This document shows, piece after piece, positions 22,937 through 32,384 of a DNA stretch of 64,000 nt (position 1 is the first letter of the stretch; each line of letters starts with the position of its first letter). Below the pieces are notes generated by a model, which saw only the letters and a list, made by a program, of their open reading frames with translations, was not told the origin of the DNA and did not search any database. This stretch comes from an uncultured Bacilli bacterium (lineage in GTDB: Bacteria > Bacillota_I > Bacilli_A > RF39 > UBA660). The DNA is taken from the NCBI GenBank assembly GCA_944358255.1, contig CALVQQ010000002.1, positions 3,739 to 67,738 on the forward strand. Reading direction: 5' to 3'. Position numbers and translations under genes: made by a program.

Positions 22937-23818
22937 TTGGAGGTTATTGTAGTGAGTTTTGGAGATAGGAAGGATGCAGTTAGGGTTAAAAACATGGATG
23001 GAATGCACATGATTATGTGTGATATAAAACCATTAAGAGCTGACTCTGATGTTTATATTAATCAGAAAGTAGATGTAACTGAACTTGTTAAATATATTGA
23101 GGAAAAGAAAAAAAGTGAAAGTGATTTAACATATTTTCATGCATTTTCGACAGCAATTGCTAAAGTTTTTTATAATAGGCCATTGTTAAATAGGTTTGTT
23201 TTAAATAAGCATTTTTATGATAGGAAAGAGGTGTCTTTGTCTTTTGTGGCAAAGGTTGATTTTGAAGATGATTCTCCTGAGTATTTGAATGTTATTCGTG
23301 TCGGTGAGAATGATACTTTGATTGATGTTAAAAATAAAATAAGCGGTACTGTTAAAAAAGTCAGAAGTGATTCTAAAAATGGAACAGATGATGCTGTTAA
23401 TGTTGTCGGAAAATTACCAAGATTTTTAAGAGTTTTTGTTATGTGGACTTTGAAAAAATTGGATAATCATGGTCTTATTCCTTATAGTTTGATTGAAAAT
23501 GATATTTATCATAGTTCAATCATCATATCCAATTTAGGGAGTATAGATTGTAATGCAATTTATCATAATTTAACAGATTTTGGAACTAATTCTATTTTGA
23601 TGACAATAGGTAAGATTCATAAAGAACAGGTTGTAATGGAAGATGGTAAAGTTGAAATTAGAGATGTATGTGATTTTGGTGTAAATGTTGATGAGAGAAT
23701 AGCGGATGGAGTCTATTTTGCGAAATCTATAAAATTATTTGAGTATATTTTACAAAATCCTGAATTATTAGAAACAAAGGCGTGTGAAAAGATTGAAAGA
23801 GAAAATAAAGTTAAGTAA
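22937..23818 (+). CDS. 2-oxoacid dehydrogenase acyltransferase catalytic-domain family protein (no lipoyl domain)
   Basis: C-terminal DERIADG matches the DHRxxDG catalytic motif of E2/CAT-like acyltransferases. Confidence 0.5.
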   Translation: MEVIVVSFGDRKDAVRVKNMDGMHMIMCDIKPLRADSDVYINQKVDVTELVKYIEEKKKSESDLTYFHAFSTAIAKVFYNRPLLNRFVLNKHFYDRKEVSLSFVAKVDFEDDSPEYLNVIRVGENDTLIDVKNKISGTVKKVRSDSKNGTDDAVNVVGKLPRFLRVFVMWTLKKLDNHGLIPYSLIENDIYHSSIIISNLGSIDCNAIYHNLTDFGTNSILMTIGKIHKEQVVMEDGKVEIRDVCDFGVNVDERIADGVYFAKSIKLFEYILQNPELLETKACEKIERENKVK

Positions 23819-25547
23819 AGAAGAAAAAAAAGAGAATAAACTAGAAAGTAAGTTAAGAAGCCCATGGACTAGATTTTATAAGGATGTTCCTAAACATTTA
23901 AATTATCCTGATATGATGATGTGGGAATTAATTGATGATACTTCAAAGATGTACCCTAATTATGTTGCTTTGGAGTATTTTGGTCAAGAAATAACTTACT
24001 CTAAATTAGTTAGTATGATTCATGAAGCTGCAAGGGCTTTAAGAGCATTAGGAGTTAGTGAAAATGATGTTGTAACTATATGTGCGCCTAATATGCCTCA
24101 GTCTATTGTGATGTTTTATGCTATAAATATGGTTGGAGCAGTTGCTAATATGATTCATCCACTGTCTGCTGAAAATGAGATACTTAATTATTTGACGATT
24201 TCAAATAGTACTTTTGTTTTTTCTATAGATGTTGCTTGTGATAAGTTGCTTAATATTATTGATAAGACTAGAGTTAAAAAAATAGTTGTGATGACTGCTA
24301 ATGGTAGCATGCCAATGTTTATGTCTGTAATGTATTGGCTTGTACAAGGTAGAAAAACTAAGGTTCCTTTTGATAAAAGCAATATTATGTCTTGGAGAGA
24401 TTTTATTGATTTTGGTTATATGTTTAATGATGAGTATATTGTTAAGAGGAGTAAATATGATCCTGCAGTAATATTGTATAGTGGTGGGACTACTGGGAAA
24501 CCTAAGGGTATTTTGTTATCTAATAATAATTTTAATGCATTAGCGATACAAAGTCATTTGATGGCAGATCCTAGTAAAGCAGGAGATTCTGTATTATCTA
24601 TAATGCCAATTTTTCATGGATTTGGCTTAGGTGTTTGTATACATACACCACTTATTTGTGGAATGAGATGTATTTTGATACCACAGTTTAATTATAAAAA
24701 GTTTGGAAATTTAATAAAAAAACATAGACCAAATTTTATTGTCGGGGTTCCTACATTGTATGAAGGTTTATTGAAAAATAAAGATATTAAAGGCAATGAT
24801 ATGTCTTCTGTTACTTGCGTTGTTTCGGGTGGTGATATGATGTTACCTGAATTAAAAAGAAAAGTTGATAGGTTTTTGGAGGAACATGGATCTAGTGCTA
24901 AAGTTAGAATTGGTTATGGTTTGACAGAAGGAAGCGCGGCTAGTTGTTTGACTCCTAGTGGTGAATATCGTGATGGAAGTATAGGCATTCCTTTTCCAGA
25001 TACTTATTATAAAATTGTTAAAGTCAGTACACATGATGAACTTCCATATGGTGAAGATGGTGAGATATGTATTCATGGACCTAGTGTTATGATGGGTTAT
25101 TTAAATGATGTTAAGGAAACTATGCAGACTTTAAGGGAACATAACGATGGTTTGCTTTGGTTACATACTGGTGATATTGGCGCAATGGACGAAGATGGGT
25201 TTGTATATTTTAAGCAAAGATTAAAAAGAATAATAATTTCTTCTGGTTATAATATATATCCTACTTATATTGAAAATGTGATTTCATCTCATCCTGATGT
25301 TCTTACTTGTACTGTCATTGGTGTAGATCACCCCTATAAAGTTCAGGTTGCGAAAGCATATATAGTTTTGAAAGATGGCGTGAATCCTACTGAAAAAATA
25401 AAAAATGAGATTAAAGAATTGTGTAAAAAGAATTTAGCTAAGTATTCTTTGCCAAGCGAATATGAATTCAGAGATTCTTTACCAAGAACATTGGTTGGTA
25501 AGGTTGCTTTTAAAGAATTAGCTGATGAAAATAAAAATGTAAATTAA
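23784..25547 (+). CDS. AMP-dependent acyl-CoA synthetase/ligase
   Basis: YSGGTTGKPKG AMP-binding motif, GYGLTE, and the GD...DEDG hinge. Confidence 0.8.
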   Translation: MKRLKEKIKLSKEEKKENKLESKLRSPWTRFYKDVPKHLNYPDMMMWELIDDTSKMYPNYVALEYFGQEITYSKLVSMIHEAARALRALGVSENDVVTICAPNMPQSIVMFYAINMVGAVANMIHPLSAENEILNYLTISNSTFVFSIDVACDKLLNIIDKTRVKKIVVMTANGSMPMFMSVMYWLVQGRKTKVPFDKSNIMSWRDFIDFGYMFNDEYIVKRSKYDPAVILYSGGTTGKPKGILLSNNNFNALAIQSHLMADPSKAGDSVLSIMPIFHGFGLGVCIHTPLICGMRCILIPQFNYKKFGNLIKKHRPNFIVGVPTLYEGLLKNKDIKGNDMSSVTCVVSGGDMMLPELKRKVDRFLEEHGSSAKVRIGYGLTEGSAASCLTPSGEYRDGSIGIPFPDTYYKIVKVSTHDELPYGEDGEICIHGPSVMMGYLNDVKETMQTLREHNDGLLWLHTGDIGAMDEDGFVYFKQRLKRIIISSGYNIYPTYIENVISSHPDVLTCTVIGVDHPYKVQVAKAYIVLKDGVNPTEKIKNEIKELCKKNLAKYSLPSEYEFRDSLPRTLVGKVAFKELADENKNVN

Positions 25548-25726
25548 TGTAAAAAAGTAAATATCATAATATTTACTTTTTTCTTTAGAAATTATGTTTT
25601 TTTTAGTAAAAAATATTTTTTTTATAAAAATATTTTTTTGTTTTTTAAAATTTTTGTTAAAAAAAACATTGACTTATATGTGTGCCTTTAGTAAGATTAA
25701 TGTAGTCAGCATAGGAGGTGATTTAA

Positions 25727-27679
25727 TTGCAAAAAGATATATTTGATGATCTTGTAGTTGTGAAAAGAAGTGGTCAAAGAGTTAATTTTAATAGTTATAA
25801 AATAGCTGTTGCAATTAAAAGCGCCTTTGATAGTGTTTATGATAATAGTGATGAATCTAATATTAATAAAGTTTATGAAAAAGTTTTAAAATATATAGAA
25901 AATAATTATGAGAATAGAAAAACAATAAATGTTGAAGATATTCAAGATATTATTGAAGCTATGTTACAGGAAGACAAATATTTTGAAGTTTATACGGCTT
26001 TTAGTGAATATAGGAAAAAAAGGGCTATTAGTAGAAAAATATTTACTCAAAAACAACAGCATAAATTTTTAAAAGCTATTGAAAAAATAAACGATGATAA
26101 TGTTTTACTAAGTGATAATACGTTTAAACTTAATGATGTGGTTGTTAAATATGGGATGACGGTTATTAATGAAATAACAAAATCTTATATAATAGATAAT
26201 AAATATCTTAGAGAGCATGATGAAGGAAATATTTTTATTCATGATATGTGTAATTTTTCTTTAGGTAGATTATCTAATATTCATATCGATATGACTGAAT
26301 ATTTAAGAAATAATTCTTTTGATAGTTTTATTTACTATTTGAAAAGTTTAGGTACTGAAGTAAATGGCGAAATTAGTATTCCAGCTTTGGATAAGTTGTT
26401 AGAACAATATTGCTTGCAGACATTTAAAAAGATTTATATTGATTATTTGTCTAAGTATTTGAAAGTATCCGGATTTGATCAATATATTAATTTAAATAAG
26501 ATAATTGAAATGGTTAATAAAGAATCAGATATAATGTTTGAGATGTCTAACTATTCAATATATATGTTATCTTCTCAAGTTGAAAATATATTTAGTCAAG
26601 CTTATAAAGATAGTGTTGATAAATGTAAAAATGACTTTTATTTGAATATTAAAAATCTATTTTGTACTTTGGATGCTTCAAATAGGAAATATTCATTTAG
26701 TTTTGGTACTAGTTCTAATTATATAGGTTCATGTTTAAATAAAATAATTATTGAAGTTTTAAATGAGTTAGATAGATTAAGTAATGTTTCTGCAACATTT
26801 AAATATAATCAGATTAATAAAGATTATTTGAAAGAAATTTGTTCTTTAGTACTTAATGGAAAAAATGTTCTTATTGCTAATCTAAATGCTTCATATAACA
26901 AGAATATAAATGAAGTTGAATATTTCTCTGATGGTGTTAGAATTTTTGAAAATAATAATGATGATGAGAGTGGTTCTGTTGGTAGAATGATGATTGCAAT
27001 TACTTCTATTAATTTTGCTAGATTAGGATTAGAATTTGAAAATGATACAATAAAGAATTTTTATAATAAATTAGATTTTGCGTTAGAAACTGTTAAAAAT
27101 GAATTGTTGTTGACTTTTGAAACCATTGGAAATAAGAATAAAGATAATTATGATTATTTGTTTAATAATAACGTAATGAGTGATCAAAAACTTGAAAATG
27201 GGCAAAAGATAAGAAAAGTTATAAAAAATGGTGATTTATTAATCGGTGTGATAGGTTTAAAAGAGTGCGTTAATCTTTTGGAAAAGGATGAGAGTAAGCA
27301 ATTATCTTTGCTTAGAGATATATTAAAGTTTTTAAATTATAAGTGTTTAAACTATCGTGAAGAAACAAGATTAAATTTTTATATTAACGCGCCTTATGAA
27401 AGTTTGGCTGCGAAGGAATTGATGACTTTGGATAAATCTATTTATGGAATAAGAAAAGAAATAAGAAATAAATATAGTTATGATTCTGTATATAATTTAC
27501 CCATTTTAAAAGATGATTATAAGAGTATTGGTGAAATACAAAAGTTTATCAGTGGCGGAAGTGTTTATGAAATAAAGTTAAATAAGAGTATGAGTATTAA
27601 TAAACTTGAAGAAATGATACTTACTTTGTTTGATAATGATATAGGATTGTTAAAGTTTAGAAGTAAGGAAGTGACTTGA
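25727..27679 (+). CDS. NrdD-like paralog: ATP-cone plus class III RNR-like core, lacking the catalytic cysteines and glycyl-radical tail
   Basis: N-terminal ATP-cone (VVVKRSGQRVNFNSYKIAVAIKSAF) and NIFIHDM resembling NrdD DIHLHDL. No CC thiyl motif, no Zn ribbon, no RxxGY. TTG start with GGAGGTG RBS. Confidence 0.55.
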   Translation: MQKDIFDDLVVVKRSGQRVNFNSYKIAVAIKSAFDSVYDNSDESNINKVYEKVLKYIENNYENRKTINVEDIQDIIEAMLQEDKYFEVYTAFSEYRKKRAISRKIFTQKQQHKFLKAIEKINDDNVLLSDNTFKLNDVVVKYGMTVINEITKSYIIDNKYLREHDEGNIFIHDMCNFSLGRLSNIHIDMTEYLRNNSFDSFIYYLKSLGTEVNGEISIPALDKLLEQYCLQTFKKIYIDYLSKYLKVSGFDQYINLNKIIEMVNKESDIMFEMSNYSIYMLSSQVENIFSQAYKDSVDKCKNDFYLNIKNLFCTLDASNRKYSFSFGTSSNYIGSCLNKIIIEVLNELDRLSNVSATFKYNQINKDYLKEICSLVLNGKNVLIANLNASYNKNINEVEYFSDGVRIFENNNDDESGSVGRMMIAITSINFARLGLEFENDTIKNFYNKLDFALETVKNELLLTFETIGNKNKDNYDYLFNNNVMSDQKLENGQKIRKVIKNGDLLIGVIGLKECVNLLEKDESKQLSLLRDILKFLNYKCLNYREETRLNFYINAPYESLAAKELMTLDKSIYGIRKEIRNKYSYDSVYNLPILKDDYKSIGEIQKFISGGSVYEIKLNKSMSINKLEEMILTLFDNDIGLLKFRSKEVT

Positions 27680-28362
27680 TGGAAATAAGCGGTTTTGAAA
27701 AAATGACTTTAACTGATTATCCTGGTTTTGTCGCGGCTATTGTTTTTACTCAAGGTTGTAATTTTAAATGTCCTTTTTGTCATAATAGTGATTTAATCTA
27801 TTTCAAGAATGGTGCGATTGATGAAAATGAGATTTTAGATTATTTGAGTAAACGTAAAAAAATGCTCGATGGTGTAGTTATTACTGGTGGGGAACCAACT
27901 ATGCAAAAAGATGTAGTTAGTTTTTTAAATAAGGTGAAAGAACTGGGATTAAAAGTTAAATTGGATACTAATGGTGCTAAACCTGAGGTTATAAAAAAAA
28001 TAATAGAATTAAATTTGATTGATTATATTGCAATGGATATAAAAAGTAGCAAGAATAATTATTCAGTAGTAAGTGGGGTAAGTGTTGACTTAGATAAAAT
28101 TTCTGAAAGTGTAAAACTTATAAAAGAATCTGGATTAGACTTTGAATTTAGAACAACGGTTGTTAGAAATTATCATACTTTAAATGATTTGTTAAGTATT
28201 TGTGAATTTGTTGGTAAAGATTCTAAATATTTTTTACAAAATTTTGAAAGTAGTTCTAGGGTTTTAGATGCTAATTTAAAAGCATTTACAAAAGATGAAC
28301 TTTTAGAAATGTGTGCTAAATTAAATGAGAAATTTCCTAATGTTAAAGTTAGAGGAATATAA
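27676..28362 (+). CDS. nrdG: Anaerobic ribonucleoside-triphosphate reductase activating protein (radical SAM)
   Basis: FTQGCNFKCPFCHN radical-SAM cysteine motif and VVITGGEP. Confidence 0.85.
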   Translation: MMEISGFEKMTLTDYPGFVAAIVFTQGCNFKCPFCHNSDLIYFKNGAIDENEILDYLSKRKKMLDGVVITGGEPTMQKDVVSFLNKVKELGLKVKLDTNGAKPEVIKKIIELNLIDYIAMDIKSSKNNYSVVSGVSVDLDKISESVKLIKESGLDFEFRTTVVRNYHTLNDLLSICEFVGKDSKYFLQNFESSSRVLDANLKAFTKDELLEMCAKLNEKFPNVKVRGI

Positions 28363-28392: not shown

Positions 28393-30732
28393 ATGTATAA
28401 GGTTAGAAAAAGAGATGGCAAAATAGTGTCATTTGATATTAAAAAGATAGGAGCAGCTATTACTAAAGCGTTTGATGCAGAAAATAAAAATTATGATGAA
28501 AATGTAATTGATTTCTTGTCATTAAAAGTTACTGCTGATTTTGAAAGTAAAGTTAAAGATGACATCATAGATGTTGAAGATATTCAAGATAGTGTTGAAA
28601 AAGTTCTTTCGCAAGCTGGATATGCAGATGTTGCAAAGGCTTATATTTTATATAGAAAATTGCATGAAAAACAACGCGCAATGCAATCAACTATTTTGGA
28701 TTATAAGGATGTTGTAAATAGTTATATCAATGTTACTGACTGGAGAGTTAAGGAAAATTCTACTGTTACATATTCTGTAGGCGGTTTAATTTTAAGTAAT
28801 TCAGGGGCTATTACAGCTAATTATTGGTTAAGTGAAGTTTATGATAAGGAAATAGCTGATGCACATAGAAATTGTGATATACATTTGCATGATTTATCTA
28901 TGTTAACTGGCTACTGTGCTGGTTGGAGTTTGAAGCAATTAATTCAAGAAGGCTTGGGTGGTGTTCCAGGTAAAATAACATCAAGTCCCGCAAAACATTT
29001 AAGTACTTTGTGTAATCAAATGGTTAACTTTTTAGGTATTATGCAAAATGAGTGGGCTGGTGCGCAAGCGTTTTCTTCTTTTGATACTTATTTGGCACCT
29101 TTTGTTAAAATTGATAATTTGTCTCAAAAAGAAGTTAAACAATGTATTCAATCATTTGTTTATGGCGTAAATACTCCAAGTAGATGGGGAACTCAAGCTC
29201 CTTTTACTAATATAACTTTGGATTGGGTTGTTCCAAATGATTTAGCTGAATTAAATTGTATAATTGGTGGAAAAGAAGTTGATTTTAAGTATAAAGATTG
29301 TCAAAAAGAAATGGATATGGTAAATAAAGCTTTCATTGAAATTATGATTGAAGGTGATGCTAATGGTAGAGGTTTCCAATATCCAATTCCTACGTATTCA
29401 ATTACTAAAAATTTTGATTGGACAGAAACTGAAAATAATAAATTATTGTTTGAAATGACCGCTAAATATGGAACTCCTTATTTTTCAAATTATATAAATA
29501 GCGATATGGAACCAAGTGATGTTAGAAGTATGTGTTGTCGTTTAAGACTTGATTTAAGGGAGTTAAGAAAAAAGTCTGGTGGATATTTTGGTAGTGGAGA
29601 ATCTACTGGGTCTATTGGTGTTGTTACAATTAATATGCCAAGAATTGCTTATTTGGCTAAAGATGAAAAAGATTTTTATGAGAGATTAGAGAAAATGATG
29701 AACATTTCTGCTAGAAGTTTAAAGGTAAAAAGAAATGTTATAACTAAATTGCTTGATGAGGGTTTATATCCTTATACTAAAAGATATTTGGGAACTTTTA
29801 ATAATCATTTTTCAACTATAGGTTTAGTAGGTATGAATGAAGCTTGCTTAAATGCTAAGTGGATAAAAGAAGATTTAACTCATGAAAAAGCACAAAAATT
29901 TACGAAAGATGTTCTTAACTTTATGAGAGAAAAACTTTCTGATTATCAAGAAGAGTATGGAGATTTGTATAATTTGGAAGCAACTCCTGCAGAAAGTACT
30001 TCTTATCGTTTGGCTAAAAAAGATAAAAGTTTATATCCTGATATCATTACTGCTTCTGATGATGATACTCCATATTATACTAATAGTTCTCATTTGCCAG
30101 TGGGATTTACTAATGATATTTTTGAGGCTTTGGATATCCAAGATGAACTTCAAACTTTATATACTTCTGGTACAGTTTTCCATGCATTTTTGGGTGAAAG
30201 GTTACCTGACTGGAAAGCTGCAGCTAATTTAGTTAGGAAGATTGCAGAAAATTATAAGTTGCCTTATTATACTTTGAGTCCTACATATTCAATTTGTAAG
30301 AAACATGGTTATTTTGCAGGTGAAGTATTCAAATGCCCTGTTTGTGATGGCGAAACAGAAGTTTATAGCAGAATTACAGGTTATTATAGGCCAGTTAAAA
30401 ACTGGAATGATGGTAAAGCTAAAGAATATAAGATGCGTAAATTGTATGATGTTAATTGTTCTAAAGAACCTCATTCAAAAAAAGTTGAAGATGGAATATT
30501 ACTTTTTGGAACTAAGACTTGCCCTAATTGTAAAATGGCTAAAAAGGTGTTAGATGATGCTAAGGTTGATTATAAATGTGTTGATGCTGAAAAAGATGTT
30601 GATTTAACTTTATCTTATGGAATTAAACAAGCTCCAACTTTGGTAGTAATAAAAAATGGTGAAGTTGAGTTAATTAAGAATATTTCTAATATTAAAAAAT
30701 TTGTTAATGAAAATGTGGTTTGTCATGTATGA
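28393..30732 (+). CDS. nrdD: Anaerobic ribonucleoside-triphosphate reductase NrdD with a C-terminal glutaredoxin/NrdH-like domain fusion
   Basis: ATP-cone N-terminus, DIHLHDL, MCCRL thiyl cysteines, CPVCDGE zinc ribbon, and RITGYYRPV glycyl-radical motif. About 90 extra residues follow, carrying TKTCPNCK (thioredoxin-fold CxxC). Confidence 0.85.
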   Translation: MYKVRKRDGKIVSFDIKKIGAAITKAFDAENKNYDENVIDFLSLKVTADFESKVKDDIIDVEDIQDSVEKVLSQAGYADVAKAYILYRKLHEKQRAMQSTILDYKDVVNSYINVTDWRVKENSTVTYSVGGLILSNSGAITANYWLSEVYDKEIADAHRNCDIHLHDLSMLTGYCAGWSLKQLIQEGLGGVPGKITSSPAKHLSTLCNQMVNFLGIMQNEWAGAQAFSSFDTYLAPFVKIDNLSQKEVKQCIQSFVYGVNTPSRWGTQAPFTNITLDWVVPNDLAELNCIIGGKEVDFKYKDCQKEMDMVNKAFIEIMIEGDANGRGFQYPIPTYSITKNFDWTETENNKLLFEMTAKYGTPYFSNYINSDMEPSDVRSMCCRLRLDLRELRKKSGGYFGSGESTGSIGVVTINMPRIAYLAKDEKDFYERLEKMMNISARSLKVKRNVITKLLDEGLYPYTKRYLGTFNNHFSTIGLVGMNEACLNAKWIKEDLTHEKAQKFTKDVLNFMREKLSDYQEEYGDLYNLEATPAESTSYRLAKKDKSLYPDIITASDDDTPYYTNSSHLPVGFTNDIFEALDIQDELQTLYTSGTVFHAFLGERLPDWKAAANLVRKIAENYKLPYYTLSPTYSICKKHGYFAGEVFKCPVCDGETEVYSRITGYYRPVKNWNDGKAKEYKMRKLYDVNCSKEPHSKKVEDGILLFGTKTCPNCKMAKKVLDDAKVDYKCVDAEKDVDLTLSYGIKQAPTLVVIKNGEVELIKNISNIKKFVNENVVCHV

Positions 30733-31615
30733 TGCAATTGTAATTGGAGCAGGGCCAGCTGGTTTAACAGCTGGCATCTATTTAGCTCGTGGTGGTGCTA
30801 AAACTTTAATAATCGAAAAGGAAAGTATTGGTGGTCAAATAGCTTCTTCTCCTTTGGTTGAAAATTATCCTGGATTTAAAAGTGTGAGTGGAAGTGAACT
30901 TGTAGATACGTTATATGAACAAGTGGTTGATCTTGGGGTTGATATTGAAATTGGCGATGTAAAGTCAATTGAAAATGGTGAGATAAAAAAAGTTTTTGTC
31001 GATGATGCTGTTTATGAGACAAAAACGGTTATAATTGCTACAGGTGTTAAACATAGAAAATTGAATTTGGAAAAAGAAGAAGAATTTATTGGTTCAGGTA
31101 TTCATTTTTGTGCTACTTGCGATGGCCCTTTTTATAAAAATAAAGTTGTCGCTGTGGTTGGAGGCGCTAATAGTGCTGTTATAAATGCAATATATTTATC
31201 ATCTTTATGCGATAAAGTGTATTTAATTTATAGAGGTAAAGATTTAAGGTGTGAAAATAAGTTAAAAGAAAAAGTTAGTAATTTAAAAAATGTTGAAATA
31301 TTGTTAAATTCTAATGTTACTCAATATTTAGGTGTTGATAAGTTAGAAAGAATTGTCGTTAAAGATTTGCAATGTGAAAAAGAAATTCAAGTTGATGGAT
31401 TATTTGTGTCAATTGGAATGAATCCTGAAACTAGTATTAAATTAAATTTAAATAAAACTGATAATGATTATTATGATAGTGTTGATACGTTAACTAATTT
31501 GCCTGGTATTTTTGTTGCTGGAGATTGTAGAAATAAAAATGTTAGACAGGTAACTACAGCTGTAAGTGATGGAACTGTTGCAGCTATAAACGCTTTAAAT
31601 TATTTGCAAAATTAA
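30726..31615 (+). CDS. trxB: Thioredoxin-disulfide reductase
   Basis: GAGPAG FAD motif, CATCDG redox-active disulfide, and GGANSA NADPH motif. ATG 30726 overlaps the nrdD stop (ATGTATGA). Confidence 0.85.
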
Positions 31616-31639: not shown

Positions 31640-32029
31640 TTAGTCGATATTAATAAGTTTTTTATTTTCTTTTTCTTCAACTTTTGGAATTACAATTTTT
31701 AATGTTCCGTTTTTAAATTCGGCTTTTGTTTTTTCTGTGTCAACATTACCTACATAAAATTGTCTTTTAATTTCTCCATAAGTTCTTTCTCTTCTAATGT
31801 AGTTTTTATCTTTTTCTTCTTTGTCTTCTCCTTTTGTTGCTTCTACAGTAAGGTAACCATCATTAATGTCAATAGAAATGTCTTCTTTGTTGAATCCTGG
31901 TATGTCCATTTCTACATGATATTTGTTATCTTTTTCGTAGATATCACATTTCATTGCATTACTTATTCTTTCATCTAGAAAATCATCAAAGAAATTATCA
32001 AGATAATATCTTCTTGGCAATAAACTCAT
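31640..32029 (-). CDS. Hsp20/alpha-crystallin small heat-shock protein
   Basis: Alpha-crystallin domain with C-terminal GTLKIVIPK. Confidence 0.85.
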   Translation of the reverse strand: MSLLPRRYYLDNFFDDFLDERISNAMKCDIYEKDNKYHVEMDIPGFNKEDISIDINDGYLTVEATKGEDKEEKDKNYIRRERTYGEIKRQFYVGNVDTEKTKAEFKNGTLKIVIPKVEEKENKKLINID

Positions 32030-32141
32030 ATCTATCCCTCCTTACATTTTTAAATATAACACCATAATTAGCACTTGTCAATATAGAGTGCTAAATTTTC
32101 ATATTTCTTTCACATTTATATTTTATGTAAAAAAAAGGAAA

Positions 32142-32384
32142 CTATTCTTCAAAAAAGTCTCCTAATTTAATTTCTAGTTTATCAGCAATTAATTTTAAAG
32201 TTTCAATTGATATAGTTGCATGAACTTTTGATGACTCTAAGTTTTTTATATAGCCGTAAGATAAGTTACATAATTCTGCCAAATCTTCTCCAGTTAGTCC
32301 TTTTTGTTTTCTAAATTTTTGAATATTTTTTCCAACTATTGTGTAAATGTTCCTAGTTTTGGGTTTTTCTTTAATATATACCAT
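32142..32384 (-). CDS. XRE-family HTH transcriptional regulator
   Basis: QKGLTGEDLAELCNLSYGYIKNLE helix-turn-helix segment. Confidence 0.75.
   Translation of the reverse strand: MVYIKEKPKTRNIYTIVGKNIQKFRKQKGLTGEDLAELCNLSYGYIKNLESSKVHATISIETLKLIADKLEIKLGDFFEE

Follow-up and report, generated by a model that had tools for sequence, protein, structure and literature searches.

Descriptions of class III ribonucleotide reductases (RNRs) name NrdD2 and the activase NrdG as their components, and the control exerted by their ATP-cone was resolved structurally only in 2024-2025. The subject of this report is a gene that lies directly in front of such RNR genes in a 64-kb stretch of DNA from an uncultured Bacilli bacterium (contig CALVQQ010000002.1; the whole stretch of 64,000 nucleotides is called the window). 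The gene, an open reading frame (ORF) at 25727-27679 on the forward strand, and the protein that it encodes are both abbreviated X. The described proteins that come closest to X are the formate-type NrdDs with an MGCR motif, such as that of Prevotella copri (8P23; NF005497/PRK07111). Like them, X has a two-nucleotide-type N-terminal ATP-cone, a linker helix of the form QQHKFxKAxE and a 10-stranded alpha/beta barrel with a finger loop, and it is encoded together with an NrdG activase. Unlike them, however, X carries neither the Zn ribbon nor the glycyl-radical domain (GRD), it has no equivalents of Cys171 and Cys416 and no Asn of the GRGN motif, and its NxN flap, ATPAE loop, specificity-site hairpin and loop 2 are lost or deleted. 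An NrdD paralogue lacking both the GRD and the catalytic Cys was not found described in RNR phylogeny papers, in a 2026 review of glycyl-radical enzymes or in the full-text literature (mostly that outside subscription journals). X appears to be neither an enzyme nor a relic in decay but an accessory or regulatory component that has gone undescribed.

Several other RNR-related proteins invite comparison. Yeast Rnr4, a eukaryotic beta-subunit paralogue, is the catalytically inactive partner of Rnr2 in a class Ia RNR, with which it forms an obligate heterodimer. It resembles X in being a conserved paralogue of an RNR subunit that has been stripped of its catalytic and cofactor residues, and it works together with the active enzyme; X, in contrast, is bacterial and derives from a class III catalytic subunit, and there are lineages in which its partner enzyme works without X. 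The inactive R1 homologues of herpesviruses (M45 of murine cytomegalovirus, UL45 of human cytomegalovirus) are viral class Ia proteins that have been reused for interference with host signalling and are unlinked to an active RNR. They, too, have kept the RNR fold and lost the catalytic residues, but X is cellular and operon-linked to an active RNR. NrdR is likewise non-catalytic and equipped with an ATP-cone, which senses ATP/dATP to control the supply of RNR. However, NrdR has only about 150 residues, possesses an N-terminal Zn-ribbon DNA-binding domain and represses nrd operons, whereas X is a protein of 650 residues without a Zn ribbon, with an NrdD barrel of 500 residues, and is not basic. 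Finally, in Leeuwenhoekiella blandensis, the ATP-cone reportedly resides on the radical-generating subunit NrdB, such that activity is controlled from a non-catalytic polypeptide. There, the cone is found on an active and essential class I subunit, while in the case of X it is carried by an inert paralogue, and the catalytic subunit of this class III system has a cone of its own.

What X retains and what it lacks

An earlier note on this DNA had read the ORF as a protein that begins with an ATP-cone, and the ORF lies exactly where the note had put it; the Pfam search finds the cone at residues 10-100 (Table 1). The remainder of the protein matches the NRDD profile with 105 bits (gathering score 26) over profile positions 18-504 of 562; with the match ending at position 504, X has no counterpart to the C-terminal end of the profile. 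All NCBIfam equivalogs for NrdD stay far under their cut-offs, the best being NF005497 (PRK07111) with 169 bits as compared to the required 764. An AlphaFold2 model, built from 56 members of the family, reached a mean pLDDT (predicted local distance difference test) of 87.2, and its top matches in a Foldseek search were the NrdD structures 8p28, 8p23, 9d3x, 1h78 and 4u3e, with matches to the enzymes of P. copri, S. thermophilus, T4 and T. maritima. The E-values went down to 5e-29 with TM (template modeling) scores of 0.67-0.80, and against core-only NrdD chains the TM scores were 0.66-0.80. P. copri NrdD (8P23) is the closest solved relative both by sequence and by fold. The model thus shows that X keeps the fold of NrdD.

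For the assignment of individual residues, we took their roles from the work on the P. copri enzyme (PMC11226230) and mapped them onto X via a closely related MGCR-type NrdD that was aligned to 8P23; the frequencies given below cover 274 full-length relatives of X. The NxN substrate flap (RENANVDGD) is deleted in X and in 269 of these relatives. The triphosphate-binding motif HxHD (PMC11226230) reads FIHD, and it is this remnant, within IFIHDM, that the earlier note had recognized as an NrdD-like IHDM segment. Its first His is replaced by Phe while the remaining xIHD is kept, and the relatives have Tyr or Phe at this position in 257 cases. The Cys of strand beta-A (Cys171 in P. copri) corresponds to Asn184 in X, and none of the relatives has a Cys here. 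Also deleted are the beta-hairpin of the specificity site (GFSTGHGxLRxP) and loop 2 (HSRAGAQV), the latter in 238 relatives as well, and the ATPAE phosphate loop is not conserved.

The losses extend to the center of the radical chemistry. The finger loop, YMGCRTRV in the MGCR-type enzymes, has become YFSDGVRIFEN, such that its tip reads GVR instead of GCR and the thiyl Cys (Cys416 in P. copri) is gone. Among the relatives, the tip residue of this G-x-R is hypervariable (I, K, R, E, T, L, V and others), with a Cys in only 4 of them. The conserved Asn that follows the thiyl Cys at a distance of 21 residues is lost as well, GRGN having changed to GRMM, and its position is taken by Ile, Val, Leu or Met in 228 relatives. 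Neither the four-Cys Zn ribbon nor the RxxGY glycyl-radical loop was present in X when it was aligned with MGCR-type NrdDs: the chain ends 4 residues past the last barrel strand, and the median tail in the relatives is equally 4 residues long. The alignment to P. copri-type NrdDs therefore bears out the earlier claim that X has no thiyl site, no Zn ribbon and no RxxGY motif. Furthermore, the 64-kb window encodes no stand-alone glycyl-radical peptide of the RRITGY type.

A protein of this sequence cannot carry out radical ribonucleotide reduction, and by its sequence features X is a non-catalytic paralogue, i.e., a pseudoenzyme, of the class III RNR catalytic subunit. With the flap, the phosphate loop and the specificity site gone, the ATP-cone is the sole nucleotide site of X that is recognizable by homology to NrdD.

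Gene context, selection and descent

In the window, the stop codon of X (TGA, 27677-27679) shares its A with the ATG of nrdG, the resulting TGATG being a one-base overlap. Together with the promoter-like site upstream of X, this agrees with the earlier assignment of X to the same transcription unit as nrdG and nrdD. The genuine NrdD that had been placed at 28393 is indeed intact, with MCCR at residue 380, a Zn ribbon of the form CxxC...CxxC and RITGY at residue 660.

When one genome of each species was scanned, about 200 loci emerged, of which 80 were retrieved (labelled L001, L002 and so on, with relative proteins labelled P0175 and the like) and 78 were X-like. All 78 come from metagenome-assembled genomes (MAGs) of uncultured gut, rumen or digester organisms with 21-34% GC, which are labelled as Bacilli, Mollicutes, Tenericutes, Erysipelotrichaceae, Clostridium sp. 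CAG:762 or CAG:1193. As an aside, many contigs of about 27% GC that carry the Bacilli-type operon (L005, L007, L008, L010 and others) have been deposited as 'uncultured Muribaculaceae bacterium', i.e., Bacteroidota, and their gene content suggests that these labels are wrong. In a large protein database, the relatives of X form well over 100 (about 120) clusters at 90% identity, with lengths of 640-665 residues and identities of 43-97%, and all of these clusters combine an ATP-cone with NRDD. A library clustered at 50% identity held 119 representatives of the family at E <= 1e-30, and in it X-like forms without the GRD and the Cys extend to about 28% identity. As the same architecture recurs in hundreds of sequences, chance is excluded as its explanation. 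No relative of X was detected in a scan of 2.9 million viral contigs, and a phage origin or association of the gene found no support.

The earlier note had proposed to survey other genomes for the three-gene arrangement. X is followed by a gene for an NrdG2-type activase, which it overlaps or abuts, in 76 of the 78 X-like loci, and wherever the contig of these 76 reaches far enough, an MCCR-type nrdD and then trxB come next. X-nrdG-nrdD thus is the rule, and because the genes outside of this block differ between genomes, X-nrdG-nrdD-trxB is a conserved unit. The remaining two loci, L016 and L048, have X directly 5' of a true MGCR-type nrdD instead of nrdG. The NrdD of L048 is complete (YMGCRTRV, Zn ribbon, RRITGY) and is followed by a short nrdG gene, while that of L016 is cut by the end of the contig. 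In addition, two distant X-like proteins, P0175 and P0193 (707 and 698 residues), are encoded divergently from an MCCR-type nrdD-nrdG pair (L084:2882-8124 and L086:2875-8097), from which they are separated by about 360 nt of intergenic sequence; L086 has a dUTPase gene after nrdG. This divergent layout is a third architecture that ties dead NrdD paralogues to class III RNR genes. In low-GC gut Bacilli, X is therefore almost always found at the head of, or beside, class III RNR genes.

The gene is under purifying selection. Between the window and L001, L002 and L003, the ratio of nonsynonymous to synonymous substitution rates (dN/dS) of X was 0.09, 0.16 and 0.10, respectively, as compared to 0.18-0.27 for nrdG, 0.15-0.18 for trxB and 0.04-0.06 for nrdD. 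A single broken copy was seen among the retrieved X loci, in L008 (728-2683), where X is split into ORFs at 728-1441 and 1451-2683, either as a true pseudogene or through an error in the assembly.

The earlier description of X as a paralogue of NrdD holds insofar as the protein belongs to the NrdD family and has an ATP-cone without radical machinery, but it is not a duplicate of its neighbor. In BLASTP, X and the NrdD of the window score only 52 bits, mainly in the cone, whereas MGCR-type NrdDs of related genomes score 213-315 bits against X, which rules out a recent duplication of the adjacent nrdD. Furthermore, the ATP-cones of the MGCR-type NrdDs in L076 and L080 agree with that of X nearly motif for motif, and in a neighbor-joining (NJ) tree, which is rough and carries no support values, the MGCR-type NrdDs are the sister group of the main X clade. 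By these comparisons, X is a descendant of a formate-type MGCR NrdD (PRK07111, P. copri-like) and not of the adjacent MCCR/PRK08270-type with its fused thioredoxin domain. In the same rough tree, again without support values, a handful of very distant GRD-less forms fall outside the main X clade, a hint that such proteins may have lost their radical machinery on more than one occasion.

In this context, a peculiar form of NrdD was observed in L080 (6998-9432) and L076 (1916-4350), and also in the proteins P0230, P0240 and P0247. In the two loci, the ORF for an MGCR-type NrdD ends just past the Zn ribbon, and a separate ORF of about 50 residues with its own ribosome-binding site (RBS; GGGAGGAG) supplies the glycyl-radical loop (..VKFERIRRITGYLVGTLDRFNNAKK..); next comes a short nrdG gene. 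In this split NrdD, docking of the radical peptide would need to occur in trans, comparable to that of GrcA/YfiD with PFL.

A possible nucleotide sensor in trans

Positional conservation was measured over 77 X sequences with a threshold of >=90%. By this measure, 43 of the 96 positions of the cone (45%) are conserved, as opposed to 45 of 485 (9%) in the core. The lowest conservation is found at residues 191-320, which are equivalent to the dimer-interface helices and the specificity site of NrdD and in which 4 of 130 positions reach the threshold. The partner NrdD from the same loci displays the opposite pattern, with values of 0.88-0.97 for its core and 0.81 for its cone, and the mean distance is 1.24 for the core of X as compared to 0.13 for that of NrdD. 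Within the cone, K13, R14, Y95, R99 and R103 of X align to Lys7, Arg8, Tyr83, Arg87 and Arg91 of P. copri NrdD, which contact two dATP/ATP molecules (PMC11226230), and all five are invariant across the X family. The alignments thus show that the ATP-cone with its predicted nucleotide-contacting residues is the most constrained part of X, and that the constraint is inverted with respect to the real enzyme. The idea of a nucleotide-sensing regulatory subunit, which the earlier note had raised, would fit this inverted pattern. Mirror-tree partial correlations give at most a hint, in that the divergence of X tracks the NrdD cone (r 0.17-0.28) more than the NrdD core (0.07-0.13); this signal is weak and confounded.

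Our preferred interpretation, to which we assign a probability of roughly 45%, is that X serves the class III RNR as an accessory that senses ATP/dATP and acts in trans. In genuine enzymes of this class, the connector bearing the NxN flap is set free or held back by ATP or dATP in the cone, and dATP makes the cones of NrdD dimerize, as is the case in S. thermophilus and P. copri, where the P. copri enzyme forms tetramers (PMC12662201, PMC11226230). The cone of X presumably still binds ATP/dATP. Since the NxN flap, its normal target in cis, is deleted in X, the cone would therefore have to act in trans. It may associate in a nucleotide-dependent fashion with the cone of the co-expressed NrdD, which would be the likeliest partner, or with that of another X, and such a cone-cone association would tune RNR activity to the dATP/ATP ratio, with the barrel of X serving only as an inert, NrdD-shaped scaffold. 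A more specific version of this proposal holds that the class III RNR of low-GC gut Bacilli is a hetero-oligomer, in which the cone of X pairs with the cone of NrdD in dATP-dependent manner and sets or overrides the control of activity in trans. We regard this version as possible but doubtful.

Several observations weigh against X as a sensor of this kind. The partner NrdD itself bears an ATP-cone, and the need for a second one is not evident. As a control, metagenomes were searched with the NrdD of the window, and among the 53 loci that had enough upstream sequence, nrdG-nrdD-trxB was found without X in 51, at 43-63% GC. X therefore is dispensable for the MCCR type of NrdD. Low-GC relatives whose NrdD is 86-87% identical to that of the window (L089 and L090) do carry X; the cassette without X in higher-GC organisms marks X as a lineage-specific add-on of low-GC gut Bacilli. 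The weak cone signal in the mirror-tree analysis is confounded by the fact that the core of X also tracks nrdG and trxB (r 0.23). Moreover, the finger loop of X bears a conserved motif of its own, VEYFS[ND]GxRI[FY]EN, such that the barrel could still bind something. Lastly, distant ATP-cone-NrdD proteins that lack the GRD and the Cys also occur alone, without an RNR neighbor (L081, L082/L083, L085). Of the stand-alone relatives, P0234 adjoins an oligopeptide ABC transporter, P0260 a rotamase/HAD/radical-SAM group and P0204 MscL and pyruvate kinase.

The latter two observations would be accommodated if X had been recruited to a role that is not directly tied to the activity of NrdD, be it as an ATP/dATP sensor or buffer with another output or as a binder of another ligand, in which case the linkage to RNR genes would reflect history or co-regulation. 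A conserved segment at residues 433-520 of X is consistent with this, as are the unrelated functions next to the stand-alone relatives and the hint of more than one origin of GRD-less forms, which comes from the NJ tree without support values. Nevertheless, we consider such a role unlikely. The main clade is linked to class III RNR genes almost universally, in three architectures and with variable flanks, and the residues conserved in the core of X are all among those that true NrdDs conserve, with no new polar cluster seen. In addition, X lacks the bias towards a basic surface that would point to binding of nucleic acids, its isoelectric point (pI) being 5.7. The candidate role of a nucleic-acid-binding regulator found no support, as X has no DNA-binding domain and the median pI of the family is 7.65. 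Nor did an NrdR-like role in DNA binding, in view of the missing Zn ribbon and the pI of 5.7.

A different arrangement could be envisaged on the basis that a class III RNR is a dimer with only one of its monomers active at any given time (PMC11226230). X might pair with one NrdD monomer via the canonical barrel interface, yielding an alpha-alpha' core heterodimer of which one half is active and the other permanently inactive, in analogy to Rnr2-Rnr4 of yeast. The retention of the overall NrdD barrel, the co-translation of X with RNR genes and its position beside an NrdD of its own subclass in L016 and L048 would all fit. However, this would require an interface in precisely the most degenerate region of the protein (residues 191-320), from which the hairpin and loop 2 are deleted, and X persists with two very different NrdD subclasses, MGCR and MCCR. 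Given also that the MCCR cassette functions elsewhere without X, the heterodimer is decidedly improbable.

The overlap between X and nrdG in the window, and their overlap or abutment in nearly all loci, brings to mind a function in radical installation. X, translationally coupled to NrdG, might be a scaffold or chaperone that holds NrdG or the GRD of NrdD in the empty top of its barrel, where the docking site is vacant for want of a GRD of its own; the separate radical loop peptide in L076 and L080, which must dock in trans, would be in keeping with this. Yet in L016 and L048 it is nrdD and not nrdG that follows X, and the activase belongs to another, short type. Other lineages achieve activation in the absence of X, and the most constrained part of the protein, the ATP-cone, would be left unexplained, such that we see only a slim chance for this function.

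Barely credible, finally, are a decaying pseudogene and a second active reductase with its radical domain supplied in trans: the loss of all catalytic motifs and the fast-evolving core would suit the former, the evolutionary remnant that the earlier note had allowed for, but it is refuted by the low dN/dS (0.09-0.16) and by wide conservation as an intact protein of 640-665 residues over about 120 clusters and some 78 species genomes with one broken ORF, and the latter, for which the split NrdDs of relatives offer a parallel, is ruled out by the absence of the thiyl Cys, the beta-A Cys and the substrate-binding motifs from X and of a stand-alone RRITGY-like peptide from the window.

The operon in the window and its significance

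The features of X and of the genes that follow it are collected in Table 1.

Table 1. Coordinates of X, its signals and domains, and the downstream RNR genes in the window
Feature	Position	Strand	Basis or remark
Promoter-like TTGACT-17 nt-TAAGAT, 5' of X	25669..25697	+	Consensus scan; consensus match alone
RBS AGGAGG of X	25713..25718	+	Sequence reading
X, ATP-cone plus NrdD barrel, without Zn ribbon or GRD	25727..27679	+	650 aa
ATP-cone of X, residues 10-100	25754..26026	+	Pfam PF03477, 61 bits (gathering score 26)
Degenerate NrdD alpha/beta-barrel core of X, residues 144-644	26156..27658	+	Pfam PF13597 (NRDD)
FIHD, remnant of the HxHD triphosphate motif, residues 170-173 of X	26234..26245	+	Alignment to NrdDs
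Finger-loop remnant EYFSDGVRIFEN...GRMM, residues 398-420 of X	26918..26986	+	Thiyl Cys and Asn both replaced
nrdG, NrdG2-type radical-SAM activase	27679..28362	+	TIGR02495, 227 bits (cut-off 131)
nrdD, MCCR-type class III RNR catalytic subunit, intact, with ATP-cone	28393..30732	+	NF006126, 1150 bits (cut-off 548)
trxB-like thioredoxin reductase	30725..31615	+	Pfam Pyr_redox_2, 147 bits

X begins with a TTG codon, and its RBS lies 8 nt 5' of this start, as read from the sequence. L001-L003, the three closest orthologous loci, preserve the leader, the RBS and the TTG start, and the promoter-like site is almost unchanged in them as well. Further upstream, right 3' of an acyl-CoA-synthetase-like gene (23784-25547), there is an AT-rich hairpin (GTAAATAT-CATA-ATATTTAC) with a run of T at 25557-25582, which is also conserved in L001-L003 and which the terminator scan missed because its stem holds too few G-C pairs. 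It probably is the terminator of the acyl-CoA-synthetase-like gene and would set that gene apart from the X operon. A search for NrdR boxes 5' of X in 67 loci gave a distribution of best scores equal to that of shuffled controls, which is a weak negative, and no NrdR gene is found within the 64-kb window.

Downstream of X, nrdG and nrdD are separated by 30 nt. The NrdD of the window scores 644 bits with Pfam NRDD, and its C-terminus gives Glutaredoxin/Thioredoxin matches at residues 700-760, with a CPNC motif (approximately nt 30490-30672). The first 8 nt of trxB coincide with the end of nrdD, again as read from the sequence. The region 28393-31615 would be a self-contained electron chain, in which electrons pass from NADPH via TrxB and the thioredoxin domain to NrdD. 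Beyond the operon, on the reverse strand at 31640-32384, lie two ORFs of 129 and 80 residues, which resemble Hsp20/alpha-crystallin and an XRE-type helix-turn-helix regulator, respectively, both being by-eye calls from the translations. A strong promoter-like sequence, TTGACA-17-TATATT with an extended TG, is located at 32081-32053 on the same strand.

The family also matters for how genomes are read. Public records name its members 'anaerobic ribonucleoside-triphosphate reductase', and for these uncultured gut bacteria, an abundant group, inferences on the RNR repertoire that depend on such names, e.g., formate- versus thioredoxin-type or copy counts, are therefore inflated. A conserved, operon-encoded paralogue in which the cone is the only nucleotide site recognizable from NrdD would add a layer to the regulation of RNR. 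X would be a natural experiment in which the allosteric module has been split from catalysis, as well as a bacterial pseudoenzyme derived from a radical enzyme. If the cone of X indeed pairs with that of NrdD in a hetero-oligomer, X would represent the first case of a pseudo-subunit with a regulatory role in an anaerobic RNR, and the first in any glycyl-radical enzyme that is derived from the catalytic subunit.

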